DNA of 64,000 bases, taken from assembly GCA_043806035.1 (NCBI GenBank), contig JAZDHK010000016.1, positions 2,963-66,962 on the forward strand, in the 5' to 3' direction. Of the stretch, positions 13,011 through 57,147 are shown one piece after another. The notes under the pieces are model-generated. The model was given only the letters and a program-made list of their open reading frames with translations, was not told the DNA's origin and did not search any database. The position numbers were made by a program, and so were the translations under genes. How positions within the stretch are numbered: position 1 is the stretch's first letter; each line of letters begins with the position of its first letter. This DNA comes from an archaeon (GTDB taxonomy: Archaea > Nanobdellota > Nanobdellia > Woesearchaeales > UBA9642).

Positions 13011-13313
13011 AGATAGGCGGGGGGCTGATCATCGGGCAACTGAGGAAAGTCCACCCACGCGCCCGCAAGGGAGGTCACTCTTTGAGCTCCAGAAATGGAG
13101 GGCAACCGCGCAAGAAACGACACGGCCTTTGAAAGGGAATGACATGGCGAAGATCCCTGTAAGGGGATTGAGTTAACCCGTAGACGTCTTCAAGGGATGC
13201 GGTGAAACGGCGAGTCCTGACCTGTGCAACCATAATGGGCTAAGTTGAATATCAGCACAATCCCTTCACAAAAGTGAGGATTGACAGAAGGTGGCTTATA
13301 CCTCGCCTATCTT
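13011..13313 (+). ncRNA. rnpB: RNase P RNA (archaeal type)
   Basis: ORF-free region carrying a CR-I-like GAGGAAAGUCCACCCAC and a CR-V-like ACAGAAGGUGGCUUA whose variable positions co-vary to keep the P4 pairing (GUCCACC with GGUGGCU). A P1 helix joins the termini (GAUAGGCG ... CGCCUAUC) and is followed by a T-rich tract. Coordinates approximate (+/-3). Confidence 0.75.
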
Positions 13314-26578: not shown

Positions 26579-28453
26579 TCAGACGATCGATACAGGCACG
26601 GTCTCACTTTCGGGCGTGTTGTAGTATGCATCATCAGGAATGACCAGAATTTCATACGTGCCTAAGGGAACATCTGATATGATGAAGAATTCTTTGTCTG
26701 GCGTTTTGTATAGGTTTCCAGGTGTGACGATGTCTATTCCTGCAAAGCAGACTTGCTGGCAAACCACTTGGGAAGAGGCTGCAGGAAGCGCCTCGTTTTC
26801 CTGCAGTATTGACTGCACGAATTCTTGGCCTGCAAGGAACAACGTGATATTGTAGCTGTACACGTGTTCTTCTGCGGAGGGTGTGGGCCAGGTGACAATG
26901 ACATTTCCACTTTCCGGCGTTAGTGGCTGGTATGTTACGCTGACGTCAAGGGCTGCGGGAGGCACAGTATCAGTCAGCGTTATCCCTATTCGTATGGGGA
27001 CTGCTTCTCTGCTCCTTGTCGTTCTGCCGTTGCTTGTTCTGAGCACTTCTGTCTGGCTTCCGTTCGTGAAGCTCAAGCAGAGCGGGTAGTGTTGTTTTTG
27101 TGGCCTGCACAGTCGTTGATTGGTGTACTGAGAGAAGGTAATCCCTTGTTCGCTCCTCACCAAGACGGCATTGTCTAGTGTAGAATCCGGGTCTTCTGCA
27201 CTATAGGAAAGCGTATTCCCAAAGGAGAGATGCTGTACGCTTGGCATGCCTGCTTGCCCCTCGACTTTTGTGTGGAAGGGGATATTGAATGCATACTCTC
27301 CTCCTTGTGCAGTCATGGTTGCACTGCCTTCAAGGGTTATTTCTCCTTGTCCTGAAAGTGGGCAGTAGCAGTTGGTGTCATTGATGTAGTTGCAGTCGTA
27401 GAGTTGTTCGATGAATGTGAAGAAAGGGTCATCGCTGCAGTGCTTGGAAAGCTCGTACGTTGCATTGTCTGTCGTGACATGTTCTGTAAAGCACTGCTCG
27501 AGGTTGTCGTTACAGTCGTGGACGATCTCTGTTGAGAATTCTTTGAGATGATTGTATGCTGCAAAGTCGTACTGTACTGTCCTGTCAATAAATGGCAAGT
27601 AGGAGTAACTGCCGAGGTATTCACCTGCAACTTTTTGCGTTTTTCCTGGTTTCTCTCCAAGAAGAGGTGTGCCTCCAGGAATGGCTGGAGGGAATGGGTC
27701 ATTTTTGGGAAACACCCACACTTTGGGGTTTTTGCCAGACACCCAATCCATGCCACTTTGGAATGCAGGATTTGATTCTTTGCCAATACCAACATAGACG
27801 TCGATGTGAGACGTGCAGTACAGCGCTCCTCCTGTGTCTTCGGCAACATACCATCCCGTCCAAGGATTGTCAGGCTCGTCAAATTCCAAATACACTTTCG
27901 AACCATAAGGAATGTTGCAGTTCAGGCAACGATACGGGCTATCAGCGTTATAATTTTTTGCTGTACAGGTTTCTGGGCCGAACGGATTTACGGCGATTGT
28001 TCTTCCTACGATGGGTGGTTCCGAGGAATGATATGCCTTTCCGAGAGTGGGTGCTGCTGTGGAGTCTGCTTTTGATGGCTTTATCCTGATGGGAGATTTT
28101 CCATCACCCGTGTATGCCTCGCCGTTTGTCCCTATTCCTCCCCCTTGGCAGAGCACTTCCTCATAAAAGCCGACAAGTTGGGGATTGTGTCTGTTCCTGT
28201 CAGCGAAGACACAGGCGGCTTGGCTGCTGGTTATGTCGCAGCCAACACACCAAGCATCATATTCGTCCTCCAATGGAGTGTTGTAGATGGTGGTGTATGC
28301 CTGTCCTGATCCTGGATAGTTAGGGGGTCCAGTTGGGTGTGGGTCTCTGATGATTTCGCCTGTTATTTGCTGTGTTGCTTGTTGGTGGGGCCAGAGCAAG
28401 ACAACTGCTATTGCAAAAAGAGCAAGTACTGCTACAATGATTGTTGTTTTCAT
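26579..28453 (-). CDS. large secreted Cys-containing protein (hypothetical), last gene of the surface operon; start taken at MKTTIIVAVLALFAIAVVLLW
   Basis: Signal/anchor helix followed by about 600 aa with many Cys/Asn/Thr; ATGA-type overlap with the upstream M15 peptidase gene. Confidence 0.5.
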   Translation of the reverse strand: MKTTIIVAVLALFAIAVVLLWPHQQATQQITGEIIRDPHPTGPPNYPGSGQAYTTIYNTPLEDEYDAWCVGCDITSSQAACVFADRNRHNPQLVGFYEEVLCQGGGIGTNGEAYTGDGKSPIRIKPSKADSTAAPTLGKAYHSSEPPIVGRTIAVNPFGPETCTAKNYNADSPYRCLNCNIPYGSKVYLEFDEPDNPWTGWYVAEDTGGALYCTSHIDVYVGIGKESNPAFQSGMDWVSGKNPKVWVFPKNDPFPPAIPGGTPLLGEKPGKTQKVAGEYLGSYSYLPFIDRTVQYDFAAYNHLKEFSTEIVHDCNDNLEQCFTEHVTTDNATYELSKHCSDDPFFTFIEQLYDCNYINDTNCYCPLSGQGEITLEGSATMTAQGGEYAFNIPFHTKVEGQAGMPSVQHLSFGNTLSYSAEDPDSTLDNAVLVRSEQGITFSQYTNQRLCRPQKQHYPLCLSFTNGSQTEVLRTSNGRTTRSREAVPIRIGITLTDTVPPAALDVSVTYQPLTPESGNVIVTWPTPSAEEHVYSYNITLFLAGQEFVQSILQENEALPAASSQVVCQQVCFAGIDIVTPGNLYKTPDKEFFIISDVPLGTYEILVIPDDAYYNTPESETVPVSIV

Positions 28454-29601
28454 CCTGCACCGCACCTTCCTATTCTTCCTTGCTCGCACAGGTTTTGTTT
28501 TCTGGCAGAGTCCCACATTCTCGTTCCGTACTCGAAATGCCACCATTCCTCACCGTATCTCACCCAGCCAATGTCACACATGAAATCCTCGAGTTGGTTC
28601 TGGAGCGCGCACTGCTCATCAGTAAAGGAATACTTTGCGTACGTGTAGCTTGCCCCTCTAGGTCCTAGATTCACTTCGTGATCAGATGCATCATACAAGG
28701 CAATGTCTATCGCACCCCCAGTCATGTGCGGGGCTGTAATGGGCCTGTCAGGTGTGCCGCAGCGTGGCTGGGCAACCCCACTGCATCTGCCAGTGAATGG
28801 CTCGTTGGGACAGTAGCTTCTCCAGATGCTTTTCTGCTTTTCAAGGCTCCTAAAGCCGCTTACGATAACTAACTCGTATGTCTGCCCATTAGGAAGCCCT
28901 TGTTCTTTGAGCAGTTGGGCAGTTTCCTGGATTTTTTTCTCAACTTCAGGGAGGACTCTGCAGCCGTCTGCTCCCGCAGTGCAGCGCACGTTCTCTATGG
29001 GGACGAGTTCGTTGTCAGTAGGACAGTAGATGGCTATTGCTTCCGTTAGTGAGGATGAAATGTATCGGAGGCTTTGTTCGAGTTTTCCTGCGCCGAGAGG
29101 GATAATGAGTGGTTGTATTGCTGTTGCAAAGATACGATATTGTGCTGGCAGTTCTGAGATCTTCTGCAAAGTAAAAGTAATGAAGGGATCGCTGAGTGAA
29201 ATGAGTCTTTTGTGATTGGAAAGGAACGGATCTAGTGCGTTGTTGAAGAACTCTGCCAGGCTTGTGGGTATATCTGGTGTGCAGTCGTTCCCTTGCCCGT
29301 TCCAGAGGTTGTACATGTACTCGCCACAGGGGCTGCCACCACCATCCTCGCCAGGCATGATGCCTCCATTGTCTGCCATTTCCGAAATTGCATAGTCGAG
29401 CGCATGTGGTGTTGCAATATCCAGATACGTTTGCGCTTCGCTGCCTTGCAGGTATGCGTTGATGAGTGCTGCTTGCTTTGTACCTATTGCTTTGGCTGCA
29501 TTTTGCGGGCTGTCGTACTTGCTGCTGAGCAAGGCCCAGGCAGTGAAGAGTGCTATGATTACCATGATGACGACGGCAGGGAGGAAAAAGTGGGCTTTCA
29601 T
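28450..29601 (-). CDS. M15-family (VanY-like) zinc D-Ala-D-Ala carboxypeptidase, membrane-anchored; start taken at MKAHFFLPAVVIMVIIALF
   Basis: C-terminal motifs SGFRS, HMTGGAIDIAL (H-x6-D zinc ligands) and EWWHFEY characteristic of Peptidase_M15 / VanY. Confidence 0.6.
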   Translation of the reverse strand: MKAHFFLPAVVIMVIIALFTAWALLSSKYDSPQNAAKAIGTKQAALINAYLQGSEAQTYLDIATPHALDYAISEMADNGGIMPGEDGGGSPCGEYMYNLWNGQGNDCTPDIPTSLAEFFNNALDPFLSNHKRLISLSDPFITFTLQKISELPAQYRIFATAIQPLIIPLGAGKLEQSLRYISSSLTEAIAIYCPTDNELVPIENVRCTAGADGCRVLPEVEKKIQETAQLLKEQGLPNGQTYELVIVSGFRSLEKQKSIWRSYCPNEPFTGRCSGVAQPRCGTPDRPITAPHMTGGAIDIALYDASDHEVNLGPRGASYTYAKYSFTDEQCALQNQLEDFMCDIGWVRYGEEWWHFEYGTRMWDSARKQNLCEQGRIGRCGAG

Positions 29602-29602
29602 G

Positions 29603-30121
29603 TCATACCTTGCTGGGCAGTTGTTGTATGTTCTTGTACCCTTCAGCAGCAACGTTACCTGGCTGTATGATTCGTAATCTTAACGTTATTGCATTCCCAT
29701 CAGCTAAAGGGAGTTGCACGTGGACGCTCTCTTCGTCTGAAAGCGAGATAGTGCAGCAGTACTTGTCGTTGTTCACGCCAGGCCACTGTTCGATGGACAG
29801 CCGCCATTCTGTTGATGGATAATGACTGGAGAGTCTTCCTGTGATTATACCTTTGAGGTCGTTTGCACTCTGCTGATCTTGCGTGAGCACTGCTCTGCCG
29901 ATGAGTTCGCCGAGAGTAGTGAGTCCTTCCCGCACAAGCACTTGTTCCTTGAGAAGGCTTATGAGATAGAATTGCGCTTCATTACTTGTGGTTATCTGCG
30001 CTATTGCACGATGCTGTGCTGCCGCGCCCGCAAGCTTGAAAATGACGTAGAATGCGATGACAACTATGACGAAGATGAAAATGGCCAGGAGATCTGCGAT
30101 AAAGCTTAGTCCGCGTTTCAT
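29603..30121 (-). CDS. pilin-like protein with class III signal peptide (MKRG|LS...)
   Basis: MKRGLSFIADLLAIFIFVIVVIAFYVIF: short basic n-region, Gly, then a hydrophobic helix; 172 aa. Confidence 0.55.
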   Translation of the reverse strand: MKRGLSFIADLLAIFIFVIVVIAFYVIFKLAGAAAQHRAIAQITTSNEAQFYLISLLKEQVLVREGLTTLGELIGRAVLTQDQQSANDLKGIITGRLSSHYPSTEWRLSIEQWPGVNNDKYCCTISLSDEESVHVQLPLADGNAITLRLRIIQPGNVAAEGYKNIQQLPSKV

Positions 30122-30125
30122 GTTT

Positions 30126-30671
30126 TCAGCTGTTCGGGGTGATGATGTGGACGAGCAGGGTGCCTCGTTCCTCGCCCATTATCGTTGAAAAAGTAACGGG
30201 GACGTCTCTGATGAGGATGCTTGCAGAGCCTTTGCCCGTGATGCCTGTCTCTACATAAGGACAGAGTTTCGTGTAGAGTGCTTTGTTGAGGTATGTGGTC
30301 TTGGCAAATGTGCCATTACGTTCTGTACAGGGAGCTCTGTCGTGGTCGTCAGAACTGGCGAAGTCATTGCGTATGAAGGTTATTTTTGCTGCGATGTGTT
30401 CTTGTGCCGTGTAGTGTATGCCAGAAAGCGTGCTGCTCGAGATGTCATCCCAGGAGATGAGGCCTATGTTTGGCCGGTTCAGTCCTTCGTGAGATTCCCA
30501 CAAATCAGGTGAGTAGTATATTCTGTAGAACAGGACGTCTCGGGAGACTTCTTGCACGTCAAGTCTGGTGAGGATGTAGAGTTCGATGAGCAGGATGACT
30601 GCAGTGAATGCGAAGATGAGGACCAATACTCGTATAACGTGCTCAAAATAGTATTTGACCTGACCTTTCAT
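30126..30671 (-). CDS. pilin-like protein with class III signal peptide (MKG|Q...)
   Basis: MKGQVKYYFEHVIRVLVLIFAFTAVILLIELYIL: KGQ motif with Gln+1 as in Methanococcus EppA-dependent pilins. Confidence 0.6.
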   Translation of the reverse strand: MKGQVKYYFEHVIRVLVLIFAFTAVILLIELYILTRLDVQEVSRDVLFYRIYYSPDLWESHEGLNRPNIGLISWDDISSSTLSGIHYTAQEHIAAKITFIRNDFASSDDHDRAPCTERNGTFAKTTYLNKALYTKLCPYVETGITGKGSASILIRDVPVTFSTIMGEERGTLLVHIITPNS

Positions 30672-31519
30672 GTGTAGTACTCCATGAGCGTTTCCTTGAT
30701 TGCCGTGGTGAGTTGTTCCTGTCCTGTATTGTCAAGCGGTGGCGTGAGGATGACGATGGCTATTTCTGCATTGATGTCTTGCACTCCTCTGACGGGGAGT
30801 TCTTGCATGCTGAGTATGCTCGTCACATCAAGATCGTATCTTTTTTTGAGGATGCAGGTGAATTTTTGCATGCCGAACACATTTGGCCCATCGAGATAAT
30901 AGAGTTTAGTGGCGGTGTAGGAGCTGTTCTGGAAGAGTGCTATCCTGACATCTGCCGTATCCCAGGCAACACCAAGATGCTCAAGAGGGAGGTCGAAGCG
31001 GAATTGGGCAAGCAGGTGGCTTTGCATGCTTTCGTCAGCATCGAACGCTATTCTTTTTTCGCTAATGTTTGCGCTTGTGGAGAAATCAATACATCCGGAG
31101 AGGGAAAGTTGCTGGCTGACTTCTATGCGGTTGCCATTCTTGTTCAAGTAGATGATGTACGGCACGAATGTCTCAGGGAGCAAATAGGTGAGTCTGTTGT
31201 CCGTGGCGTATGGGAAGTTTGCGGGTGAGTTCTTTTTCTTGTCTGACTGCTCGTACACGCTCACCCGGTCCGTGCCGAATTCTATGAAGATGCCTTGCTT
31301 GAGATCCACTTGCGGAATCTGCTGGTAGGTGAACGCGACATCACCATCTGCCACAGGCAGGAGGTCCATGATGAGCGCTGTATCTCGCGCAAAATAATTC
31401 CTCCAATAGGTTGTGTCATTGACCTCGCCCCTGACATAAATCATAAGAGCAACGGCGACAACGCCGAGCATGACGAGCTCGAAGATGAAATACCACGGCA
31501 GACTCATCTGACCTTTCAC
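30668..31519 (-). CDS. pilin-like protein with class III signal peptide (MKG|Q...)
   Basis: MKGQMSLPWYFIFELVMLGVVAVALMIYV; 283 aa; overlaps the downstream pilin-like gene by 4 nt. Confidence 0.6.
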   Translation of the reverse strand: MKGQMSLPWYFIFELVMLGVVAVALMIYVRGEVNDTTYWRNYFARDTALIMDLLPVADGDVAFTYQQIPQVDLKQGIFIEFGTDRVSVYEQSDKKKNSPANFPYATDNRLTYLLPETFVPYIIYLNKNGNRIEVSQQLSLSGCIDFSTSANISEKRIAFDADESMQSHLLAQFRFDLPLEHLGVAWDTADVRIALFQNSSYTATKLYYLDGPNVFGMQKFTCILKKRYDLDVTSILSMQELPVRGVQDINAEIAIVILTPPLDNTGQEQLTTAIKETLMEYYT

Positions 31520-31592
31520 AACCCACCTCTCAGTCCTCTTCCGAGAGGAGCATTAAAATGTTTTTCGTTTAAGGGCGCGTGCGGTAACCTGT

Positions 31593-31931
31593 TCATCGCA
31601 GAATGATTGATGTGAAGTACTTTTCTTGGAATTCAGTCATTGCACGTATTTGATCGTCCGTGTATGTTTTTCCTTCGGGAACGATGACGAGTTTGTCCTC
31701 GACATCATCGAGTCTGTGGATGACCGCTATGCACTCGCCAGTAAATTCTTGGACGGGTTCGAAGACACCGAGAACGTAGGCATCGAGATCTTCTCCGTCA
31801 GGCGCGGGAACACCCGGCAGATATCCGTAATTGTAAACGTAATAGATGTCATGAATCCTCGGGTGCCTGCTTCCCATTGGCCGGTCAATTTTCACATGTA
31901 CGACTTTTCCGAGAAATTCTTTTGATTCCAT
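31593..31931 (-). CDS. miniature inorganic-pyrophosphatase-like protein (112 aa)
   Basis: Matches the family I PPase core: YVYNYGYLPGVPAPDGEDLDAYVLG (cf. E. coli [23 protein letters not shown]), KLVIVPEG (cf. KLVAVP), EFQEKYF (cf. HFFEHYK); lacks about 60 aa of the canonical enzyme. Confidence 0.55.
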   Translation of the reverse strand: MESKEFLGKVVHVKIDRPMGSRHPRIHDIYYVYNYGYLPGVPAPDGEDLDAYVLGVFEPVQEFTGECIAVIHRLDDVEDKLVIVPEGKTYTDDQIRAMTEFQEKYFTSIILR

Positions 31932-31932
31932 G

Positions 31933-32940
31933 TTACATCAGAAACATCACGGCATACCCCACAAGGCAGCCTATGGTGAGAAAGGGCATGGCGGGATAGA
32001 ACTTGTCTTTCTTTGCAAAATAGAAAAGCAGACCGAGTGCAAGTGCTGCTCCTAACACAACGGGGGTGGTGTGCAGGAATGCGGCTGATTTTGTCATGCC
32101 TGTGCTGAAGAGTTGGGTGAGTGCAGTTCCTGCGAACAAAAGAGGGAATGCAATGTCCCCGCCGCCGAGAATGGCGTGCTTGTGCTTTCCTGGCAAGAGG
32201 GGTGTTGCATGGTGCGTGCTTGCATGTACTGCGTGCTTGCTTGCGTGTTCTTTTTGCTTGTAGGGAAAGTAGAGTCCTGCAAAAAGGTTGCTTTTCGTCT
32301 GGAATTGGGCCATTTTGACCATGTGTTTGCTCTTCCACACTGCATATGCGTCATACAGTGATACGGCGAGCAGAAGTAGGAGCGCCCATAGCACGTTGAA
32401 AAGGGGAACAAAGAGCAACGCTATGCCTCCGTACATGAATATTTCTGTGAGGTTGTGGATGATGAGATTGGGTTTCCAGAGCTTCCATGCTGCAAGAGCT
32501 GCTGCAATGAGCAATGCAATGAAAGCGGGGAAGAAAACGCCCAGCGTTACGGTTATTGCAAACCACACGGCGAGGAAGAACCAGAACTTCCATATGCCTA
32601 TCTTGTTGAATTTCATGAGTAAGAGCAGTAGAATTGTCCCTATGCCAACGCCGATGACGACGAGCAGGAAGCTCTGGCTACCCTCCGTCTTTGGTCGTTC
32701 TCCCAATGCTGTGTCTCCGTATTGGACTGTTATAGTGCCGTTCACCGTCTGTACGTTCGCCTCTTTCGTTATGAGAAATAAGCCAAAAAACTGTGCGGCG
32801 AGAAATGTTGCCAATAAAGCGAAAGTAACGAGCCAAGAGTGCTTCATACAGAGATAGTGTTCGTTTGATTTATAAGCATTTGTATCTGCAGCATGCTGCG
32901 CAAGACATTCGTTCGCGTCATCGTTGCAATGACACTTCAA
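31933..32940 (-). CDS. presenilin / signal-peptide-peptidase-like intramembrane aspartyl protease (A22-type, GxGD)
   Basis: Nine predicted TM helices; YD in TM6 (LAVSLYDAYAV), hydrophilic loop, GxGD in TM7 (ILGGGDIAFP), PAL-like PAM in TM9. Confidence 0.6.
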   Translation of the reverse strand: MKCHCNDDANECLAQHAADTNAYKSNEHYLCMKHSWLVTFALLATFLAAQFFGLFLITKEANVQTVNGTITVQYGDTALGERPKTEGSQSFLLVVIGVGIGTILLLLLMKFNKIGIWKFWFFLAVWFAITVTLGVFFPAFIALLIAAALAAWKLWKPNLIIHNLTEIFMYGGIALLFVPLFNVLWALLLLLAVSLYDAYAVWKSKHMVKMAQFQTKSNLFAGLYFPYKQKEHASKHAVHASTHHATPLLPGKHKHAILGGGDIAFPLLFAGTALTQLFSTGMTKSAAFLHTTPVVLGAALALGLLFYFAKKDKFYPAMPFLTIGCLVGYAVMFLM

Positions 32941-35032
32941 TTATTCCCAAAGTGTCTTCTTTGTAATCTATTTGGTATTTGTCTGTCCCTGACAGTCCGT
33001 ACGTTCGTTTATAGATGGGCGTGTCTGTTATGTGAAGAAGTGGCAGGACGTTCTTGAGTGAGGCGGAAATGCCGAGTTCTCCGAAAGAGAATGGTTTTGT
33101 GTAGCCTATTCCCGCTCCCAGCTCGAAGCTGGGAGGCAACCGTTTTCCGTTTCTCATTTCATTTTCGAGAAAGCTCACCTCACCTATGCCGGGAATGGTT
33201 ACCCGTCCTACCCGTTTATCCGTGTAGGGAAATCCATCCCTAAAACTGAAGTTGGTGAAGACGCGCCAGGGCTTGACGTGATAATCTAGGCTCAGTCCGC
33301 ATTCAAAACGGCGATCTTTGTCAATGAAAGAGGGGATTGTTCCTTTTTCTCCTAGTCTCGTCGTTCCCAAGAGGGCATAGCTGCCTATCGTCCACTTTTT
33401 CATAGTTAGGTCGTATTGGAGCAACGACCATGTGCTGTAGCCGTACAACGATGTGCCTTTGCTCTCGACCGCATCCATGCGCGCACCAGCGCATTCCACA
33501 CGAAGAGAACCAGTGTACACGCGTCTAGAATATGCTGTGCTCGCTCCCGTTGTTGTCGTGAAGACTGCCGTTTTGTTCAGGTCAGCATCCTCTCCAGCAA
33601 AGGTTGATCCGCCTATCGAGTAGACGTTGTGGCGGAGCATGCGCAGTTCAAGAATGTATGTTGGTGTCATTCTTGTCCATGTCGCTTCAAGTGCAGGTTT
33701 AATGTCCCTGCTTTTTTTGTGCACGAGTGTTTGGTCTATCCTGCCCCCTAGCGTCAGTGTTCCTGGGCCAAGAGAAACTGCCGTCTCCCCTCCCGCTGCA
33801 AGAGTAGTTATGGACATGGTGTCTCTGGTTTGATTTGCGTCAGCTGCCGTCAGATCTTTTCGTACGGCATTTCCTTCTTGGACAGAACCATCAATGACGA
33901 GGAGTGTTTGTTTGCTATGCCTCCAGATGAACTTTCCGAACTGTTGCTTGAGTTTTGCCGTGCTTTCTCTCCGAAAACTGACTTGTGATGTGCCTACTGA
34001 TTCTTCGCCGTCCGTTGTGTAGTTAAGGTAACTGTCGAGCGAGGAAAAGGACATAGACAGTGTGTCGTTGGAAAAGAAGGTTGTTGCTGTTGCGTGCAGG
34101 TTTGTTTTTCCTTCTTTAGCGTCTAGGACAGCGTCTAGGTATTTGTCCCTGCTGCCATAGACGTGCGTTCTGCTTTTGTCTTGCTCAAAACCAAGTTCGA
34201 ACTTTCCTCGTCTTGACTCGCCGAAGAGGTAGTGGAGCAGATTTTCTGATGCGGGGAGCACCGTGTTGCGCGGCAGGGAATACATCGTGCCTGCAATCCA
34301 TTGGTACGTTGTCTGTCCGTAGTCTGTCTCTGCTGCAATGCTGCCCCTCTTTCCTGATACAAGAGGGTATGCTACGCGTATGCTCGATGCAGGAATGCCC
34401 GTCTTTACCGAGTATGCTATGCGTTCTGGTTGGTCGAGCGCCGTGAAAACACAATAATCAACGCCATATGCGGGATAGGCAATGGATCCGTGCCGCACTG
34501 TTTTTTGTGCAGAAAGCGGTTGTATCCCTGTCCAGCGCCCTGCGAGAGGATGCTGTTGGTGCACGCCTATCCCTCCGGGCGTGTATTCAAGAACATCTAT
34601 GCCTCTGATGGTGACGTCAGCGTCGAGCGTTGGCTTATTGTCTATGACTCTATTCTCTAGTCTGAGCTGGCCTTGTTCGTTGAAGCTTCCCGAAAGAGAC
34701 AGGGGTATGTGGGGCTGCTCGGCAACGATGAAGACTTCTTGAGCGAACAGCGGAATGTCAAGAAGCACAATGCTATCCAAGCTGGCTATTGGGACGTTTT
34801 GGAGTTGCTTGCCGATGCATCTGATCGTGACGCTGTCGATGGGCTGTGCAGTGTTAAGCACGAACACGCCTTGCTCGTTTGTGCTCACGAACCCAGAATG
34901 TGATGGGTCGAGGACGGTTGCTCCAACAACAGGGCGTCCTTCCTTGTCGACGACCTTTCCCGTATACACGTCCGCTATTGTCGTCGAGACGAGTAGCGAG
35001 GACGCGAGCAGCAATGATAATAATTTCCCCAT
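32918..35032 (-). CDS. large secreted beta-rich protein with N-terminal carboxypeptidase-regulatory-like (CarboxypepD_reg) domain; first gene of the surface operon
   Basis: Signal peptide MGKLLSLLLASSLLVSTTIA; VYTGKVVDKEGRPVVGATVLDPSHSGFVSTNEQGVFVLN matches the CarboxypepD_reg fold; remainder has alternating beta-strand-like pattern; start codon shares CATG with divergent nucS. Confidence 0.55.
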   Translation of the reverse strand: MGKLLSLLLASSLLVSTTIADVYTGKVVDKEGRPVVGATVLDPSHSGFVSTNEQGVFVLNTAQPIDSVTIRCIGKQLQNVPIASLDSIVLLDIPLFAQEVFIVAEQPHIPLSLSGSFNEQGQLRLENRVIDNKPTLDADVTIRGIDVLEYTPGGIGVHQQHPLAGRWTGIQPLSAQKTVRHGSIAYPAYGVDYCVFTALDQPERIAYSVKTGIPASSIRVAYPLVSGKRGSIAAETDYGQTTYQWIAGTMYSLPRNTVLPASENLLHYLFGESRRGKFELGFEQDKSRTHVYGSRDKYLDAVLDAKEGKTNLHATATTFFSNDTLSMSFSSLDSYLNYTTDGEESVGTSQVSFRRESTAKLKQQFGKFIWRHSKQTLLVIDGSVQEGNAVRKDLTAADANQTRDTMSITTLAAGGETAVSLGPGTLTLGGRIDQTLVHKKSRDIKPALEATWTRMTPTYILELRMLRHNVYSIGGSTFAGEDADLNKTAVFTTTTGASTAYSRRVYTGSLRVECAGARMDAVESKGTSLYGYSTWSLLQYDLTMKKWTIGSYALLGTTRLGEKGTIPSFIDKDRRFECGLSLDYHVKPWRVFTNFSFRDGFPYTDKRVGRVTIPGIGEVSFLENEMRNGKRLPPSFELGAGIGYTKPFSFGELGISASLKNVLPLLHITDTPIYKRTYGLSGTDKYQIDYKEDTLGIIEVSLQR

Positions 35033-35846
35033 GCTGTTGTCTTTACGGGAGAGGTATAAAAACATTTCCAAAAACATTAAATACGTCATCATCGTCTTTT
35101 GCTTCGTGCAAAAGCATACAACCTTCCTCGAAGAGTGCAAGTTGGCTCTGCAAAACGATGCCACCCTCGTTCTGTGGGTGCGCTGTGAAATAATGTATAG
35201 TGGCCGTGCCGAAAGCCATTTGGCATCCGGAGATAGGCTCATCATCATCAAGAGCGACAAGACCATTCTCGTCCATCAACCGAAAGGGAGCTCGCCCATC
35301 AATTACATGAAGGCAGGATGCGAACACACACTTGAACCCGTCGAGGGGACGGATGCATTCATCCTGCACAGTAGACAGGGGAAGGAATACTTGGATGTGT
35401 TCATCGAGCAGGTGTATGACCTTTCCACGAAAAAGCTTGAAGATCATGCGACACTACAGTTGGTGGGGAGTGAACGGGACATGAGTGACATGCTGTATCA
35501 CAATCCTGAGCTTATCGAGAAAGGATTCACGCCATTGAGTAGAGAAGAGCACACCAAGTATGGATTCATTGACGTCTTTGGCTATGACAAAAAAGGCATT
35601 CTCGTCGTGGTCGAATGCAAAAGGTATATGGGGGATTTGGCAGCAGTCACCCAATTACGCAGATATGTTGAGAAGATAAAAGCATCGAAAGGGCTTGCTA
35701 CTGTACGCGGCATCCTTGCCTGTCCCGCAATAACACCGAATGCAAAAAAGATGCTCGAGGATTGGAAGTTCAGCTACGTGCACGTTCACCCCCCTAAATA
35801 TTTGGAGAAGCACCGCAAGAGTCAGATGAAACTCGGGGAATACTGA
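35031..35846 (+). CDS. nucS: endonuclease NucS / EndoMS
   Basis: N-terminal domain ATLVLWVRCEIMYSGRAESHLASGDRLIIIKSDKTILVHQP; C-terminal RecB-like nuclease motif GFIDVFGYDKKGILVVVECKR. Confidence 0.85.
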   Translation: MLLSLRERYKNISKNIKYVIIVFCFVQKHTTFLEECKLALQNDATLVLWVRCEIMYSGRAESHLASGDRLIIIKSDKTILVHQPKGSSPINYMKAGCEHTLEPVEGTDAFILHSRQGKEYLDVFIEQVYDLSTKKLEDHATLQLVGSERDMSDMLYHNPELIEKGFTPLSREEHTKYGFIDVFGYDKKGILVVVECKRYMGDLAAVTQLRRYVEKIKASKGLATVRGILACPAITPNAKKMLEDWKFSYVHVHPPKYLEKHRKSQMKLGEY

Positions 35847-37669: not shown

Positions 37670-38974
37670 TTAGAAGTTTGTTTCTTTGATTGCCGTGGGT
37701 GCTGAGCCGCCATGCCACGTGAACCTTGGGCGTATGGCGATGGGGAAGAGTTTCTCATTGTTGTCGTCGAAGATGAGCGCTGCTCCGCTTATTCTGGGTA
37801 GGTCGTCGAGCTGCTGGACGAGGCCTTCGCGCATGTAGCTCTGCATCAACGCACCCAATGACTCCGTGTCTATCTTTGCCGTGATCCTGTGCGCAATAAC
37901 CGTGTCCGCTTGCGTCATGACGTCCGTGTGGATTTTTCCCGGCTGCTGCGTTGCCAGAATTAATGAAATGCCCGGCTGCCTGCCTTCTCGGAGGATGGTG
38001 ATGAGCGGCTCTGTGGCGAGCGTCTTGCCCTGGTTGGGTAGGAATTCGTGTGCCTCGTCGATGATCAACCACACCATGGGGAAGCTTTCCTGCTTCTCCT
38101 CCTCGCCAAAATAATTCACGGTTTTGTGTATTGCCTCGTATTCTTCGTCTTTCCTTGCGAGCATGCGCTGCACGAACAGTTTTTCTGCAACGAGTCCGAC
38201 GATAAGGTTTTTGATGTTCCACGAATTTTCAACGGTCGCATAGCAGGATAGATCGAGGACGGTTATTTGGCCTCCGCGGACGAGATCAGTCAGCGGTGTT
38301 CCTTTGTTGCTGAAGATGCCCCAGCGTGCTGCGGCCTGGAAGAGGTTGAGTGCTGACTGCTTGACGTGCTGTTCTTCTTTGTCATCAGCGGAGATGTTCT
38401 TGATGATGTCCTGCATCGTATAGGGATTGCCTGCGTCTTGCATGTCCTGAATGATTCGTTCGACAAAAACACCCACTGGTTCTGTTGTGCTCAGGCTGAA
38501 TGTACTGCACCAATCACTGCCCTCCAGCTCTGACGGTTGCAGGCTGAACGGGTAATCAGTGGGAATTCCTTTTTTCATGTACTCATCGTAATAGCCGCCT
38601 GGTGTGTAAATCTTGATGTCCAATCCTTTCGCATCGAGCCCCCATTCCTTGAGGAGTTGCTTGTCCTTCTGGTTGGGATATTTCATGGTCCAGTACACTC
38701 CCATGGTGTCGAGCAGGATGACAGATATGTTTTTCTTAATCTCAATAGGGACGTCAGCAACGCCTTCTGCAATGACGCCCATGGTGTAGCTCTTTCCAGA
38801 ACCTCGCTTGCCTACGACGAAGACGACATGGCTTCGTACCATGTCTAGGTAGACGTTGCTCGACAAAGAGGTAGTCATGCCCATCTTGACATAATGCCTG
38901 CCTAAGAACACAGCTCCTTTGAGACCGTATGCCTTCTTGTCTGCTTCTGTTCGGCCGATGACGATGTCGTACAT
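37670..38974 (-). CDS. HerA/FtsK-like P-loop ATPase (DUF87 family); start taken at MYDIVIGRT
   Basis: Walker A VVGKRGSGKSYT; Walker B WLIIDEAHEF; overall DUF87/HerA-like order of motifs. Confidence 0.55.
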   Translation of the reverse strand: MYDIVIGRTEADKKAYGLKGAVFLGRHYVKMGMTTSLSSNVYLDMVRSHVVFVVGKRGSGKSYTMGVIAEGVADVPIEIKKNISVILLDTMGVYWTMKYPNQKDKQLLKEWGLDAKGLDIKIYTPGGYYDEYMKKGIPTDYPFSLQPSELEGSDWCSTFSLSTTEPVGVFVERIIQDMQDAGNPYTMQDIIKNISADDKEEQHVKQSALNLFQAAARWGIFSNKGTPLTDLVRGGQITVLDLSCYATVENSWNIKNLIVGLVAEKLFVQRMLARKDEEYEAIHKTVNYFGEEEKQESFPMVWLIIDEAHEFLPNQGKTLATEPLITILREGRQPGISLILATQQPGKIHTDVMTQADTVIAHRITAKIDTESLGALMQSYMREGLVQQLDDLPRISGAALIFDDNNEKLFPIAIRPRFTWHGGSAPTAIKETNF

Positions 38975-39090
38975 GCTGTGCTTATGACGGGAGAGCTTTA
39001 AAAACTTATTGCTCCTTGTTGGGGAGTGACAAATCACAAACTTTAAATAACCTCAGCGAATACGAAACCGAGAGGTGAGGAGGGGGAGGC

Positions 39091-40446
39091 ATGGATTCTA
39101 CGTCCAAGAAAGATATAGACCACATCAACAAGCTTGCAAAGGCACAGAAAAGACCAAGTAAGGCTGTTCACAAAACACATCGGCGAAAAGTCGAGAAGAA
39201 AGAGCCAAAAAAGAAATCGCTCACGTGGCTGTGGATTGTACTTGGGGTTGTTGTCGTTGCCGTGGTCATCGCATTTATCTATTCGCAAGTACAGCAGCCT
39301 CCTGCTCCTTCGCAGAACACTGCTAAAATCGCTGCTATCGTGAATGGTGAGAAGATCATGCTAGATGATCTCCAAGACCAGTACGACCGACTGCCCGCTC
39401 AAATCAAGAGTCTGTACACGCTGTCAAGTTTCCTCAACCAGACCATAGAAGAAAAACTCCTCCTCCAGGAAGCAGCACGGCAGGACATCATAACGACTGA
39501 CGATCAGGTGCGGGAAGCACTTGATTCGTTCATCACGGAACGAGGGCTCACGCAAGCTGACCTTGAGGGATTGCTCGCACAACAAGGAGTAACGATGCAG
39601 TACTTCACGGATCTCATCAAGAAGCAACTCACTCTCACGGCGTTGTTCAACAAGACCATCTTCAACGAAATAACGGTGTCTGATGAAGATGTGCAAGCGT
39701 ATTATGATCGCAACAGCGCAGCGTTCGAAGCGCCGGAGCAAGTGACGGTGAAGCACATTCTTGTCAGCAATGCAACACAGGAAGAACCAGCTGCGCTTGT
39801 TGAGGAGCTCAAGGCAAACATCAGTGATGGCGCTGATTTCTGCACGCTTGTCACAGAATATACGGAAGATCCTGGAAGCAAGGACAAGTGTGGAGAGTAC
39901 ACCTTCCCTCGTGGCGTGATGGTTCCCGAATTCGAGGATGCAGCATTCTCGCTCGATGATGGCGACATGGCTATTGTGCAGACCCAGTTCGGCTACCATC
40001 TCATCTTGAAAGTGGAGACTATTGCAGCAAACCCTCGCCCCTTCTCTGAGGTCTCCGATGAAATAAAGAACCAGCTTACTCAAGAAAAAAGCCAACAGGC
40101 GTACATAGCGTACCTGGATGAGCTCAAAGCAAAGGCGAACATCCTCATCCTGCTGGATGAGGAGATAGTCAGCCCTGCAAAGCTTGCTGCGTGCCTTACT
40201 GCGCAAGGTGCAAAAATGTACGGTGCATACTGGTGCGGCCATTGTGCAAACCAGAAGGAACTCTTCGGAGATGCTGCACAAGATATGCCTTATGTGGAAT
40301 GCGCAATTGCAGAAAATCCCCAAGAACAGACGGATGCGTGCAAGGAAGCGGGCATCAGCGGCTATCCGACATGGATAATCAATGGGCAGAAGTATGAGGG
40401 CGAGCAATCGCTTGAGAGCCTCAAGAGCATCTCTGGTTGTGCGTAG
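39091..40446 (+). CDS. membrane-anchored SurA-like chaperone / parvulin PPIase fused to a C-terminal thioredoxin-like CxxC domain
   Basis: Basic N-terminus plus TM; PpiC domain (VKHILVSN...FGYHLILKV); C-terminal AKMYGAYWCGHCANQKELFG...GISGYPTWIINGQ resembles the Trx-like partner domain of VKOR proteins. Confidence 0.65.
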   Translation: MDSTSKKDIDHINKLAKAQKRPSKAVHKTHRRKVEKKEPKKKSLTWLWIVLGVVVVAVVIAFIYSQVQQPPAPSQNTAKIAAIVNGEKIMLDDLQDQYDRLPAQIKSLYTLSSFLNQTIEEKLLLQEAARQDIITTDDQVREALDSFITERGLTQADLEGLLAQQGVTMQYFTDLIKKQLTLTALFNKTIFNEITVSDEDVQAYYDRNSAAFEAPEQVTVKHILVSNATQEEPAALVEELKANISDGADFCTLVTEYTEDPGSKDKCGEYTFPRGVMVPEFEDAAFSLDDGDMAIVQTQFGYHLILKVETIAANPRPFSEVSDEIKNQLTQEKSQQAYIAYLDELKAKANILILLDEEIVSPAKLAACLTAQGAKMYGAYWCGHCANQKELFGDAAQDMPYVECAIAENPQEQTDACKEAGISGYPTWIINGQKYEGEQSLESLKSISGCA

Positions 40447-44708: not shown

Positions 44709-44867
44709 ATGCCTTTCCTCGTCAGATGTCCTGCCTGCAAAAACACGATGCTCGTCCAGCCGAGACTGCAGCCAGGTGAGGAACTTGCGCCAAAACGGAA
44801 GGTGTGCGTCTACTGCGGAAAGAGCTTTTCTGTGAGAAAACAAGCGCTAAAATACCTCATTCGTTGA
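44709..44867 (+). CDS. small C4 zinc-ribbon protein (52 aa)
   Basis: [14 protein letters not shown]...CVYCGKSF; start chosen at the Met directly before the first CxxC. Confidence 0.4.
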
Positions 44868-44947
44868 GAGGAACAGCGTCAGAAAAAAAGCAAAACACTT
44901 ATAAACCGGGTTGGTTTTTCAGCGTCGATAAAAACAGGAAGACCCCC

Positions 44948-47392
44948 ATGACGAACACGCCATCACAAGAACCATCTGTCCCGCACGAATCACGCATTCT
45001 CAAAGAGATTGTTGAGCAGAAAATGAAGTCTGCATACATAGATTATGCCATGTCCGTCATTGTCAACCGTGCCTTGCCCGATGTGCGTGACGGCCTAAAA
45101 CCAGTCCATCGCAGAGTATTGTATGCCATGAATGATCTAGACTTGGCACACAACAAAGCACACAAGAAGTGTGCAAGGATTGTCGGAGAAGTCTTGGGAA
45201 AGTACCACCCCCACGGTGATAGTGCCGTGTATGAGACATTGGTGCGCATGGCACAGGACTTCTCGCTGCGCTACCCTCTCGTCGATGGACAGGGAAATTT
45301 TGGTAGCATCGATGGGGATAATGCTGCTGCGATGAGATATACGGAAGCACGACTCAGCAAGATTGCAGGAGAAATGCTGCTGGACATTGACAAAGAAACC
45401 GTTGATTTCAAGGACAATTTCGATGCCACCCTGCAAGAGCCCGACGTGCTACCCTCACGCATTCCCAATCTCATCATGAACGGCAGTAATGGCATAGCAG
45501 TGGGCATGGCGACGAACATTCCTCCACACAATCTTCAGGAGATAGGGAAGGCAATCATTGCACTCATTGACAACCCTGAACTGAGCGTTGCCGAGATTAT
45601 CACACACGTGCAAGGTCCTGACTTTCCTACGGGGGGCATCGTCGCTGGCAGGAGCGGCATCGTGTCCGCCTATACGACAGGAAGAGGCATCATCCAGCTG
45701 AAAGGCGTCATGCAAGTACATGAGGTTAAGGAGAAAAAGCGCATCATCATTTCTGAAATTCCCTACCAGGTAAACAAGGCGCAACTCATTGAGGAAATTG
45801 CAGGATTAGTACGTGACAAAAAAATCACGGACATCAGTGACATGCGTGACGAAAGCAATCAAGAGGGCATACGTATCGTGCTTGAGCTGAAGCGGGATGC
45901 ACATCCCGACATCGTCATGAATGTCTTATACAAATTCTCGAGAATGCAAGTGAGTTACAGCATCAACATGCTTGCTCTTGTCGACAATGAGCCGAAGCTG
46001 CTTTCACTGAAGCACGCACTCGTACACTATATCGATCATCGAAAAATTATTGTTGTCAGGAAAGCTCAGTTTGAGCTCAAAAAGGCACAGGAACGGGCAC
46101 ATATCCTTGAAGGTTTGCAGAAGGCCTTGCAGCACATTGATGCCGTCGTTGCGCTCATCAAGAAAGCCGCAAAGGTTGAAGATGCAAAGCAGAAGCTGAT
46201 TGCAGAGTACGGATTGAGTGATGTACAGGCACAAGCCATTCTCGAAATGCGCCTGCAAAGAATCGCCCAGTTGGAACAGGAAAAAATCGTGCAGGAACAT
46301 CAGGGACTCGTGAAAACCATCAGGCAACTCCAGCACCTGCTCTCACACGATGAAGCCATACGTGATGTCATGAAACAGGACCTGGTTGAGGTGATGAAGC
46401 TGTATGGAGATGATCGGAAGACAGTTATCAGCGATGAGGATGAGTCCCTTGAGCTAGAGGAACTCATACCTGACACGATGCAGGTCATCACCCTGACGAG
46501 ATCTGGGTATATCAAAAGAACAGCGCTTGACATTTTCAAGGTGCAGCGACGAGGAGGCAAAGGAGTCATTGGTACGGACAAGAAGGATGAGGATGTTGTC
46601 GAGCACATTTTCGTGGCAAGCACCCGTGCGTCATTGCTCATCTTCACTGACAAAGGGCTGGTGCATTGGCTCAAGATCTGGAAAATCCCTGAAGGCAACA
46701 GATATGGTAAGGGCAAAGCTCTCATCAATCTCGTTGAGCTTGACAAAGAGCAGGTCACGGCAGTCATTCCCGTCAAGGAATTCACGGACAAGGAATGCTT
46801 GATCATGGCGACAAAGCGTGGTGTCGTCAAAAAAACGAACCTGAACGAATATGCAAATCCTCGACGAGGGGGTATCAAGGCCATCGCTTTCGACGAGGGT
46901 GATGTCCTCGTTAATGTCATAAAAACAAAAGGCAATGCAACACTCATCCTTGCAACAAAAAAAGGCATGGCGAGCAAGTTCAGTGAGCATGATGTACGTA
47001 GCGTTGGGAGGACTGCGCGAGGTGTGCGAGGTATACGCTTGCGTCAAGGTGATGCTGTGGTGGGTATGGTTATTGGGGAAGACACCAAAAAGTTGCTGAC
47101 CGTTACCGAGCATGGGTTCGGTAAAAAAACGCTTATCAGCGAATACCGCTGCATCAACAGAGGGGGCAGTGGCGTCATTAACATCCGTTGTGGGGAGCGA
47201 AATGGACCTGTTGCGTGCGTTCGCAGCATTACGGATACGGACGAATTGTTGTTTGTTTCTAAGAATGGCATCATGATCAGGACTTCTGCAGCAGACATTC
47301 CCACAGTAGGAAGAAATACACAGGGTGTGCGTATCATGAAACTCGATCAAGGAGACATCGTGGTAAGCGCTGCAAAAATTTATGGTGAGTAA
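44948..47392 (+). CDS. gyrA: DNA gyrase subunit A (no intein); start at [10 protein letters not shown]
   Basis: [24 protein letters not shown]; catalytic region [10 protein letters not shown]; C-terminal beta-pinwheel repeats. Confidence 0.95.
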
Positions 47393-51000: not shown

Positions 51001-51963
51001 TCACTCATTCTCTCCGCTTGACTTCACAAGGATTTTCGTGATGATCGATTCCTGGAAGTCATAGTCAATCCAGATATTGACGAGTTTCGTCTTATCCTGA
51101 CGCTCTGATTCGGGGATTTGCTGCACGCAGCTCACTGTCCTTGAGCCACTGACCAGTTTCACGACACCAGAAGCCACACCATCAGAGTCTGTGGTGAATC
51201 CTTGGCAGGAGAAGTCTCCTTCGATGCCCGTCTTGACACGCACCATAACTTTATCCTCTGCGGCTCTCGCCTGCGCGTTCGTGAAGCCGTATGCGCATTC
51301 GGTGCCGTTCTCGAAGACCTTGCCTGCTCCTCTGCTGACTTCGAACGTGAACCTAATCTTATCAGATCCTTGCGTGTATTCTTGGAAGTTAGCTATAGCG
51401 ACCGGTGCTCCGGAATATTCGAACTTTTTCGGACCCGAGACGATGCAGACCTTGGTGTTCTTGCTGTCGAGGAGGTTTTTCTTGATGCACAATTCTCCGA
51501 TTGCTCTTGTCTGGTAGACGTAACACGCATCTATGACGATGGGAAATTCGTGATTACCAGGAAGATCCTCGACGTGGTTAAGCGCGAAGTATTCTGAAAC
51601 GGGGGCGAAGCTCTCTATCTTTCCCGTGTCAGGATTCAGACGGACAGCGAGAAGATCATCATCTGCTGTGCTTCTGAAGTCATCGCTGTTGTTGACACCG
51701 AATTCTCTGGCATCAAGTCCTTTAAGTTCGATATGCATGTCATCCATGTCAACAGTAGTCTCTCCTTTGTTTTCCATGCGGATGCCGACTTCGAACGGGA
51801 AGTCCCCGCCAGCCGTGACATAATCGGGAGGTGCGTCTGGCTCGAAGCTGATGACTACTCCGGCATTTCCACCCGCATAGAATCGGGTGTTTGATGGTTG
51901 CTGCGAACCACAGGCAGTGACGAGGAATGCAAGCACAAGCAAGGGTATAAAGAGTTTATTCAT
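51001..51963 (-). CDS. lipobox lipoprotein, paralog 1 (signal MNKLFIPLLVLAFLVTAC)
   Basis: Lipobox LVTAC|GS; body shares the ...F(E/K)PDAPPD..FPFEVGIRMENKGET pattern with the two upstream lipoproteins. Confidence 0.5.
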   Translation of the reverse strand: MNKLFIPLLVLAFLVTACGSQQPSNTRFYAGGNAGVVISFEPDAPPDYVTAGGDFPFEVGIRMENKGETTVDMDDMHIELKGLDAREFGVNNSDDFRSTADDDLLAVRLNPDTGKIESFAPVSEYFALNHVEDLPGNHEFPIVIDACYVYQTRAIGELCIKKNLLDSKNTKVCIVSGPKKFEYSGAPVAIANFQEYTQGSDKIRFTFEVSRGAGKVFENGTECAYGFTNAQARAAEDKVMVRVKTGIEGDFSCQGFTTDSDGVASGVVKLVSGSRTVSCVQQIPESERQDKTKLVNIWIDYDFQESIITKILVKSSGENE

Positions 51964-52021
51964 GAATTCTACCTCCTTCTGTGTCTTTCTGTGACGAATG
52001 GTTTTTTATAGTTTGTCCTTT

Positions 52022-53317: not shown

Positions 53318-53349
53318 ACCTCTTTCTCCATCTTCAGGGTTTATAAATT

Positions 53350-54921: not shown

Positions 54922-54981
54922 GTCGTTCTTGTGTTGCAGAGGGGTTATAAATGTTTTGGCTGCAATCATGCTTCACTGTGC

Positions 54982-57102: not shown

Positions 57103-57147
57103 GCTTACCTCTTTTTAGCAATTCTCGAGAAAGGACTATTTAAATGT

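Follow-up and report, generated by a model that had tools for sequence, protein, structure and literature searches.

A lineage-specific N-terminal module joined to an M15-type zinc peptidase, encoded with an MltA-type partner: a candidate surface murein hydrolase of a Woesearchaeota-like archaeon

Woesearchaeota and Pacearchaeota encode large extracellular lytic-transglycosylase proteins for which a role in attacking the walls of bacteria has been suggested (PMC8204110, PMC9723730), and DPANN archaea encode murein hydrolases that may target bacteria (PMC8204110, PMC9723730, PMC10936187). In haloarchaea, experiments have shown that modular peptidoglycan hydrolases kill bacteria, and the accompanying survey, which required a recognised cell-wall-binding domain together with a Sec or Tat signal, reports the Nanoarchaeota as a prominent group (Strock et al. 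2025, PMC12352652). Here we analyse a 64,000-nucleotide (nt) stretch of archaeal DNA (contig JAZDHK010000016.1 of assembly GCA_043806035.1), referred to throughout as the window, and in it a gene on the minus strand (28450..29601, the M15 gene) for a protein of 383 amino acids (aa), in which an N-terminal carrier module is followed by an M15/LAS zinc peptidase domain. A previous reading of these letters without database searches, which we call the sequence-only reading, regarded such an enzyme as unexpected in an archaeon; that surprise was overstated, murein hydrolases of Woesearchaeota, Pacearchaeota, and Nanoarchaeota having already been published (PMC8204110, PMC9723730, PMC12352652).

The M15 protein resembles the enzymes of the haloarchaeal study (PMC12352652) in that it is archaeal, has a murein hydrolase domain of bacterial type, and is predicted to be exported, but it contains no known wall-binding domain (such as LysM, PG_binding_1, or SH3) and no Sec or Tat signal, and would therefore be missed by that survey. 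A closer comparator is the group of large lytic transglycosylase proteins designated fam00969, which come from the same lineage as the window (PMC8204110, PMC9723730). Proteins of 1000-1500 aa that combine M23 and SLT domains, and that we liken to fam00969 by its published description, share with the window locus the N-terminal module of the M15 protein, the C-terminal region of the protein encoded immediately downstream (gene 5), and a position beside the gene for RPA. In contrast to a single SLT/GH23 protein of more than 1000 aa, the window has two genes, for proteins of 383 and 624 aa; these have an M15 and a 3D (MltA-type) catalytic domain where the giants have M23 and SLT (GH23), and neither has an SLT domain. 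The explanation that we favour, with a probability of roughly 0.65, is that the M15 protein is an extracellular, membrane-anchored M15/LAS zinc peptidase, paired with the 3D protein as surface murein hydrolases aimed at bacteria.

The catalytic domain occupies aa ~215-372 of the M15 protein (28486..28959, minus strand), and all three motifs quoted in the sequence-only reading are present in the open reading frame (ORF): SGFRS at aa 248-252, with R251 at nt 28849-28851; HMTGGAIDI at aa 292-300, with H292 at nt 28726-28728 and D299 at nt 28705-28707; and EWWHFEY at aa 352-358, which includes E352 and H355. The ORF starts with the ATG at 29601, and the starts of its homologues are the equivalent of this codon; a longer ORF that starts with TTG (to 29652) enters the end of the upstream gene and is therefore not taken as real. 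Two Pfam profiles score above their cut-offs, VanY (PF02557; cut-off 25) with 30.8 bits and E 2.8e-7 and Peptidase_M15 (PF01427; cut-off 27) with 29.1 bits, and together they span aa 221-362; as judged from these profile scores, the family match is far beyond chance. In a pairwise alignment H292, D299, E352, and H355 correspond residue by residue to H116, D123, E181, and H184 of VanX, of which H116, D123, and H184 are the known zinc ligands and E181 the catalytic base; the His/Asp/His ligand set (H292, D299, H355) is intact, and R251 corresponds to the transition-state Arg of the family. In an alignment of 17 full-length homologues, conservation of at least 90% makes the five key residues (R251, H292, D299, E352, H355) nearly invariant, and Q256, W354, and E357 do not vary at all; C92, C107, C207, and C214 are conserved cysteine positions of the M15-protein family in the same alignment.

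The AlphaFold2 model of the M15 protein has a predicted local distance difference test score (pLDDT) of 85-98 over aa 200-370, and the top Foldseek matches of the predicted catalytic domain, all with probability 1.0, are LdcB (4mph, 4jid, 4ox3), VanXYc, VanX, and VanY, followed at lower ranks by phage L-Ala-D-Glu endopeptidases and hedgehog N-domains, which are the usual neighbourhood of the LAS fold. With the single sequence, the search of the PDB gave a marginal VanX match only and a family profile was required; that profile matches LdcB of B. subtilis (4ox3, 2.5e-10) and VanX (1r44, 4e-10) about equally. In comparison with LdcB and VanY (MEROPS M15B) and VanX (M15D), the M15 protein has the same LAS fold by Foldseek, the H-x6-D...H ligands, the Glu of ExxH, the Arg of S-x-x-R-S, and Pfam scores above the cut-offs, but it is only ~16-21% identical to solved enzymes, falls far below the equivalog cut-offs for VanX, VanXY, and DdpX, is archaeal, carries in front of the catalytic domain a 195-aa module that is unknown in bacteria, and stands in a gene context without vancomycin-resistance or cell-wall-recycling genes. 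A word-indexed homology search gave only 3 relatives, and an exhaustive search of representatives was used instead; it gave 867 relatives at E <= 1e-3, only 6 of them below 1e-30. An exact-sequence search of the contig index gave no copy of the M15 protein, while NCBI contains an identical protein, encoded on a 69.6-kb contig. Sequence and model together indicate that the C-terminal domain is a real M15/LAS peptidase, probably active, and that it lies outside the orthologues of all characterised subfamilies.

The N-terminal module (aa 1-195; 29017..29601, minus strand) begins with MKA and the hydrophobic helix, at aa 6-29, that corresponds to the membrane anchor seen in the sequence-only reading. 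A model of the module built from 42 sequences (pLDDT 83, predicted TM-score 0.70) has a hydrophobic helix at aa 6-30, a long helix at aa 41-77, a loop between the invariant C92 and C107, a helix at aa 111-128, and a beta-hairpin at aa 140-161, and the module matches no Pfam family and no fold in the PDB. A local hidden Markov model (HMM) search found the module in 81 of 151 representative relatives of the M15 protein, always at the extreme N-terminus; among the proteins that carry it are P0050, P0052, and P0055, and a second copy was not found in the window by HMM search. Thirty-five of the module-bearing relatives are atypical, meaning that they are other than simple M15 proteins of 330-380 aa, and the Pfam domains in these are VanY (11), Peptidase_M23 (10), SLT (8), and NlpC/P60 (6), with one each of N-acetylmuramidase, Amidase_3, CHAP, and glucosaminidase, as well as one GDSL lipase and one TPM domain; the set of relatives was seeded with the M15 protein, which biases these proportions. 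Nearly every recognisable partner of the module is a murein hydrolase, which suggests that the M15 domain too acts on murein and is the strongest indirect evidence for this. We infer that the module is a lineage-specific carrier that would present varied murein hydrolases on the cell surface of related archaea.

The M15 gene is the fourth of five tightly packed, co-directional genes on the minus strand, the four junctions of the cluster, from 1/2 to 4/5, measuring -4, +4, +1, and -4 nt, and the same arrangement recurs at five other loci in distantly related archaea. In the related locus L002, from a JGI metagenome, genes for proteins of 288, 176, and 167 aa precede an M15 protein of 356 aa and a protein of 634 aa, and are followed by RPA, a 98-aa gene, RadA, and ribosomal protein S2, which is the order of the window, though the two M15 proteins are only 32-34% identical. 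In L004, a Nanoarchaeia metagenome-assembled genome (MAG), the corresponding proteins have 284, 193, 162, 328 (M15), and 558 aa, with RPA next, and in L001 a 152-aa protein precedes an M15 protein of 371 aa and a 3D protein of 929 aa, such that the order of the M15 gene followed by the 3D gene recurs in both L001 and L002. In L083/L084 (NCBI and ENA MAGs), proteins of 311, 170, and 202 aa are followed by a single M23+SLT protein of 1280 aa, RPA, and, further on, RadA. Finally, in L085 proteins of 290, 187, and 208 aa are followed by a single protein of 1015 aa (P0022), which consists of the N-terminal module, an M15 domain, an SLT domain, and the C-terminal region, and then by RPA.

Thus a block of genes for proteins of ~285, ~180, and ~170 aa and a hydrolase, leading to RPA, is found in the window, L002, L004, L083/L084, and L085, with its last slot filled by M15+3D, M15-SLT, or a giant M23+SLT protein according to the locus. 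Comparison across loci with blastp links genes 1 and 2 and matches the N-terminus of the M15 protein to the N-terminus of the giant proteins; since the C-terminus of gene 5 also matches the giants, the M15+3D pair fills the slot of a single giant hydrolase. The locus is kept in synteny although the M15 proteins are only 25-34% identical. The sequence-only reading had placed the M15 enzyme in a pilin-like operon, and while it had the enzyme and the operon right, the enzyme is not isolated, because the next gene, of 3D/MltA type, begins within the M15 stop codon.

That partner, cluster gene 5 (26579..28453, minus strand), encodes 624 aa, in which a hydrophobic anchor or signal at the N-terminus is followed by an MltA-like/3D domain and then by a C-terminal region that is conserved. 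The overlap of its start codon with the M15 stop (ATGA; GGATGAAA) implies coupled translation. The 3D domain, the core of MltA-type lytic transglycosylases, lies at 27770..27913 on the minus strand and scores 33.8 bits for PF06725 against a cut-off of 23.8. Similarly to the MltA/3D lytic transglycosylases, gene 5 keeps the second and third Asp residues of the domain (VAEDTGG and HIDVY), including the equivalent of the catalytic Asp; it differs from them in having Asn for the first Asp, in its large C-terminal region, and in being a 624-aa archaeal protein. The C-terminal region (aa ~280-540; 26834..27616, minus strand) has its homologues in the C-terminal parts of the giant proteins, both M23+SLT and M15+SLT, with blastp and tblastn matches to aa 766-1030 of P0055 (the 1280-aa protein of L083), to aa 594-687 of P0022 (the 1015-aa protein of L085), and to the 558-aa protein of L004. 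A PDB sequence search with the gene 5 protein was uninformative.

According to the explanation that we favour, the five genes would be transcribed together, and the M15 and 3D proteins would be exported and kept at the surface, either through their N-terminal helices or as parts of a pilin-like assembly that forms once class III processing has taken place. The 3D protein would cut the bonds between N-acetylmuramic acid and N-acetylglucosamine in the glycan strands, and the M15 domain would hydrolyse D-Ala-terminated stem peptides, as a carboxypeptidase or a dipeptidase, with cleavage of cross-links also possible, such that the two enzymes might locally dismantle bacterial murein during attachment to, entry through, or feeding on the wall of a host or prey. 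The bond cleaved, the extracellular location and topology, the joint action of the M15 and 3D proteins, and bacteria as the target are the parts of this scheme that we infer.

Several points weigh against it. The NCBIfam equivalog cut-offs are not reached, the scores being 34.6 against 176 bits for PRK10178 (DdpX-type), 18.4 against 320 for VanX, and 16.9 against 250 for VanXY, and the LdcB (LD-carboxypeptidase) and VanX (DD-dipeptidase) profile scores are about equal, such that the scissile bond is unreadable from the sequence. Pfam gives VanY and Peptidase_M15 only for the M15 protein and no recognised cell-wall-binding domain, and genes 1-3 give no family match in Pfam or NCBIfam from which a function could be assigned. 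In addition, the alignment of gene 5 orthologues has Asn in place of the first Asp of the 3D domain (AVNP) in the window, L002, and L001, and since this substitution runs through the lineage, the activity of the gene 5 partner is not assured.

The same profile scores bear on an improbable alternative, in which the enzyme serves nutrition rather than attack and, like E. coli DdpX, frees D-Ala from D-Ala-D-Ala or shed muropeptides for scavenging by an auxotrophic archaeon with a small genome. The DdpX-type D-Ala-D-Ala dipeptidase is the best NCBIfam match, the C-terminal part of the M15 protein, with EWWH included, aligns best with VanX, and DPANN archaea are widely inferred to be scavengers (PMC8204110, PMC10936187), but the DdpX score is far under its equivalog cut-off. 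Furthermore, the M15 gene is coupled to the gene of a glycan-cleaving enzyme, and its module is common to endopeptidases, amidases, and muramidases that act on the polymeric wall. DdpX and VanX are also cytoplasmic enzymes, whereas the M15 protein begins with a membrane segment and has cysteines that are conserved. Scavenging is compatible with the surface murein-hydrolase explanation.

A very unlikely possibility is that the archaeon uses the enzyme to remodel a wall of its own, made of pseudomurein or of a polymer resembling murein; the sequence-only reading had offered pseudomurein-like polymers beside bacterial peptidoglycan as substrates. The scanned ORFs of the window include no Mur-type or pseudomurein synthesis gene, though such genes could lie outside the 64 kb, and this too counts against the explanation that we favour. 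Pseudomurein peptides contain L-amino acids only, and because N-acetyltalosaminuronic acid carries a C6 carboxylate, lytic transglycosylases cannot form the 1,6-anhydro product from it. With the partners of the module being nearly all murein enzymes, pseudomurein as the substrate is rejected on chemistry and on these partner domains, and of the three earlier suggestions (pseudomurein-like polymers, bacterial peptidoglycan, horizontal acquisition) action on bacterial peptidoglycan is the one favoured. Archaeal peptidoglycan hydrolases are also rare in the classes that make pseudomurein (PMC12352652).

The host is identified by the genes around the cluster. An archaeal RNase P RNA at 13013-13310 is the only Rfam match at gathering thresholds in 1-64000, the window encodes the archaeal markers RadA, RPA, NucS, Topo VI A and B, NurA, RFC, and TrmB, and the best RadA matches that carry a lineage name are all Candidatus Woesearchaeota, Nanoarchaeota, or Nanoarchaeia MAGs (64-79% identity); these markers and matches therefore identify the host as a Woesearchaeota-like DPANN archaeon. 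The M15 gene has a GC content of 0.508, a GC content at third codon positions of 0.536, and a Jensen-Shannon codon-usage divergence of 0.049, all like those of the neighbouring archaeal genes, such that the comparison of composition with flanking genes that had been suggested earlier gives a match.

These data bear directly on whether the gene came in recently from a bacterium or virus, through contamination, a mis-binned contig, or an endolysin cassette of a provirus, and has no role in the archaeon. In favour of such an import, the catalytic domain is bacterial in type; the phage endolysins Ply500, LysB4, and LysECD7 are among the weaker structural and sequence matches; and in a midpoint-rooted neighbour-joining tree, which has no support values, the module-bearing archaeal M15 domains fall with Patescibacteria-type sequences including P0002, apart from VanY of Firmicutes and Actinobacteria. 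Archaeal core genes nevertheless flank the gene on its contig, with RadA and RPA downstream and NucS and Topo VI elsewhere, and the gene has the GC content and codon usage of its neighbours, has no integrase, capsid, or terminase gene nearby, and belongs to an RPA-side locus that recurs in archaeal contigs whose M15 proteins have diverged to 25-34% identity. Composition, together with synteny that holds down to 25% identity, therefore excludes recent transfer, contamination, or a provirus for practical purposes, and we consider this barely credible alternative to be effectively refuted. Horizontal acquisition from bacteria, as raised in the sequence-only reading, is plausible but old. In a genome scan, the relatives that match in the catalytic domain alone are bacterial, from Patescibacteria, Acidimicrobiia, Brevibacillus, Desulfovibrionaceae, and others, and the grouping in the tree may be a hint of an old exchange between two ultra-small radiations. 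The bacterial-type relative P0002 (328 aa) is itself a fusion of a T4SS_pilin membrane domain (VirB2/TrbC-like, PF18895) to a VanY domain, with 36% identity over the catalytic part, and it may represent a Patescibacteria-like parallel of tethering an M15 peptidase to a pilin-like anchor.

The three genes upstream of the M15 gene bring in the question of whether the cluster is pilin-like. Cluster gene 1 (30668..31519, minus strand) encodes 283 aa with the class III signal-like N-terminus MKG-QMSLPWYFIFELVMLGVVAVALMI and has orthologues in the same position in L002 (32% identity, E 1e-42), L083, L085, and L004. Searches of Pfam, NCBIfam, and the PDB with gene 1 gave no match, a PDB profile search with the gene-1 family gave noise, and a profile-profile comparison of this family with the N-terminal module found the KKG motif alone in common. 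Cluster gene 2 (30126..30671, minus strand; 181 aa), which overlaps gene 1 by 4 nt, begins with an N-terminal hydrophobic helix (MKGQVKYYFEHVIRVLVLIFAFTAVILLI) and has orthologues in L002 (30% identity, E 2e-24), L083, and L085, and cluster gene 3 (29603..30121, minus strand; 172 aa) has the class III signal-like N-terminus MKRG-LSFIADLLAIFIFVIVVIAFYVIF and weak orthologues in L002 and L004; neither has a family match in Pfam or NCBIfam. Ahead of gene 1, a 73-nt spacer (31520..31592, minus strand) contains the TATA-like, A/T-rich cattttaatg (TTTTAATG) and a Shine-Dalgarno-like GAGGTGG before the GTG start, and is a putative operon promoter with a ribosome-binding site. Directly upstream of the cluster, the minus-strand interval 31593-32940 encodes an intramembrane aspartyl protease of the presenilin/signal-peptide-peptidase type (335 aa, PF06550, 53.9 bits) and a second, short protein of 112 aa that is inorganic-pyrophosphatase-like; neither gene is at this position in the related loci, and their adjacency to the cluster is therefore probably not functional.

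The M15 protein itself has a class III-like N-terminus, MKA-HFFLPAVVIMVIIALFTAW, in which K/R-G/A/S directly precedes a hydrophobic helix of ~20 aa, and genes 1 and 3 share this motif. In all 74 module proteins compared, the last K/R ahead of the hydrophobic segment is followed by G (in 31), A (in 27), S (in 15), or T (in 1), and the next position is most commonly Gln. As the region is otherwise poorly conserved while K/R-G/A/S is fixed, the pattern looks like the constraint of a prepilin (class III) peptidase site. The other exported proteins of the window have lipobox or Sec-like signals. In L002, L083, and L085 the block extends upstream as 8-14 consecutive genes with a class III-like N-terminus, and at 2020-2492 of L002, 3974-4515 of L083, and 2855-3407 of L085 there are pairs of 77-92-aa proteins that start with MKKG-VELS-x-NVIIIA(A/V)I and have Cys-rich C-terminal halves. 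From their sequences these small proteins look like major pilins, though they have no Pfam or NCBIfam pilin match even at E <= 1, and a regular-expression search and tblastn found no small KKG-VELS genes in the window.

The archaeal proteins with class III signals, namely type IV pilins, archaellins, and the sugar-binding proteins of the Sulfolobus bindosome, are alike in having a charged N-terminus with K/R-G/A/S, a hydrophobic helix of ~20 residues, and clustered genes. The Sulfolobus sugar-binding proteins provide a precedent for proteins that are not pilins and yet have class III signals. In contrast to these proteins as a group, the M15 protein has no homology to Pilin_N, Class_IIIsignal, or archaellin families, no pilin fold, and no assembly genes nearby. 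Indeed, the pilin, archaellin, and Class_IIIsignal profiles of Pfam and NCBIfam do not match the M15 protein, genes 1-3, or the small proteins of the relatives even at E <= 1, and the predicted fold of the N-terminal module is not a recognisable pilin fold, that is, a long N-terminal helix on a beta-sheet. Neither the scanned window ORFs, which were those of 150 aa or more, nor the 10 kb around the cluster in L001, L002, L083, L084, and L085 include a prepilin peptidase, secretion ATPase, or platform protein. On sequence grounds a class III-like signal is present, and pilin membership is not shown. The pilin-like operon of the sequence-only reading therefore stands as one tight operon with small proteins bearing class III (prepilin)-like N-termini, and falls as regards a pilin profile or a recognisable pilin fold.

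These observations leave as possible, though doubtful, the suggestion that the five cluster proteins are not simple membrane-anchored ectoenzymes but pilin-like subunits, processed by a prepilin peptidase, of a fibre or tip resembling a type IV filament that carries murein hydrolases (a "drilling pilus" or "hydrolasome"). The motif before the helix in every module protein, often followed by Q, its presence in genes 1 and 3, the upstream runs of motif-bearing genes in three relatives with their major-pilin-like small proteins, the lipobox and Sec-type signals of the other secreted window proteins, and the Sulfolobus precedent all speak for such a fibre. Against it stand the lack of a pilin profile match for the cluster proteins and the small "pilins", the lack of assembly genes in the scanned window ORFs and around the five related loci, and gene 5 of the window, whose N-terminus has Lys-Thr without the G/A/S motif and resembles a plain signal or anchor. 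More broadly, and as tentatively, the locus could encode a fixed surface apparatus beside RPA and RadA, with a prepilin-like fibre or tip whose terminal subunit has an exchangeable murein-hydrolase payload on a carrier domain of 175 aa, for breaching the walls of bacterial hosts or prey. The payload may be M15+3D, M15-SLT, M23+SLT, NlpC/P60, an amidase, or a muramidase, and the apparatus, if real, would be an archaeal cross-domain "cell-wall drill".

Two other regions of the window have N-termini of this kind. A second run of five co-directional genes without a Pfam match lies at 51001-58959 on the minus strand and encodes proteins of 603 (556 from the ATG at 58818), 706, 539, 431, and 320 aa; the first has the class-III-like N-terminus MTRTGKRG-AAAPTSGGSAAVVVIIITALVILYLLF, the last three have the lipobox-like LSAC, LTGCGS, and VTACGS, and the 539-aa gene has a weak tblastn match (31% over 80 aa) to a 447-aa gene of the pilin-like cluster of L002. 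Possibly this run is what lies upstream in the surface-protein cluster of the relatives, moved here to another site. On the plus strand, 1543-3687 encodes a protein of 714 aa that matches no Pfam family and begins with MKG-QVTIFVVIGIVLLLAVGIF, in agreement with the class III pattern; an HMM search did not find the N-terminal module in it.

Further observations concern the remainder of the window. An intein splits the Topoisomerase VI subunit B gene (4894-8259, plus strand) and includes a homing endonuclease domain of the LAGLIDADG type (matches to Intein_splicing and LAGLIDADG_3), and besides Topo VI there is a bacterial-type DNA gyrase subunit A (44804-47392, plus strand; PF00521, E 2e-163, six GyrA C-terminal repeats). 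At 37670-40446, a HerA/DUF87-Zot-type ATPase (455 aa, minus strand) adjoins a divergent, membrane-anchored fusion of a SurA-like peptidyl-prolyl isomerase and thioredoxin (451 aa, plus strand), and the two could be an export/chaperone pair, which is not conserved beside the hydrolase cluster in the relatives. A 782-aa ORF at 32918-35266 (minus strand) overlaps NucS on the other strand as called, its probable real start being at the internal signal peptide MGKLLSLLLASSLLV, and it contains a CarboxypepD_reg/SusC-N-terminal-like domain below the Pfam cut-offs and has no other match. ARAGORN found no tRNA genes in 1-64000.

Much of the diversity of the Archaea belongs to the DPANN group. The giant lytic-transglycosylase proteins were an earlier hint that some Woesearchaeota attack bacteria, and the locus described here extends these known large proteins of Woesearchaeota-type archaea. 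The N-terminal module, its K/R-G/A/S motif, the pair of M15 and MltA-type enzymes, the RPA/RadA locus with an exchangeable payload, and the three upstream proteins are not described in the searchable literature, and the locus makes the hydrolase repertoire broader than reported, with M15 stem-peptide peptidases and MltA-type enzymes. The module with its prepilin-like signal also provides a sequence handle for finding this murein-hydrolase arsenal in metagenomes, and the M15 and 3D enzymes are candidate antibacterials. Finally, the exchange of payloads while the chromosomal site stays the same suggests that the enzymes are adapted to bacterial walls of different kinds.

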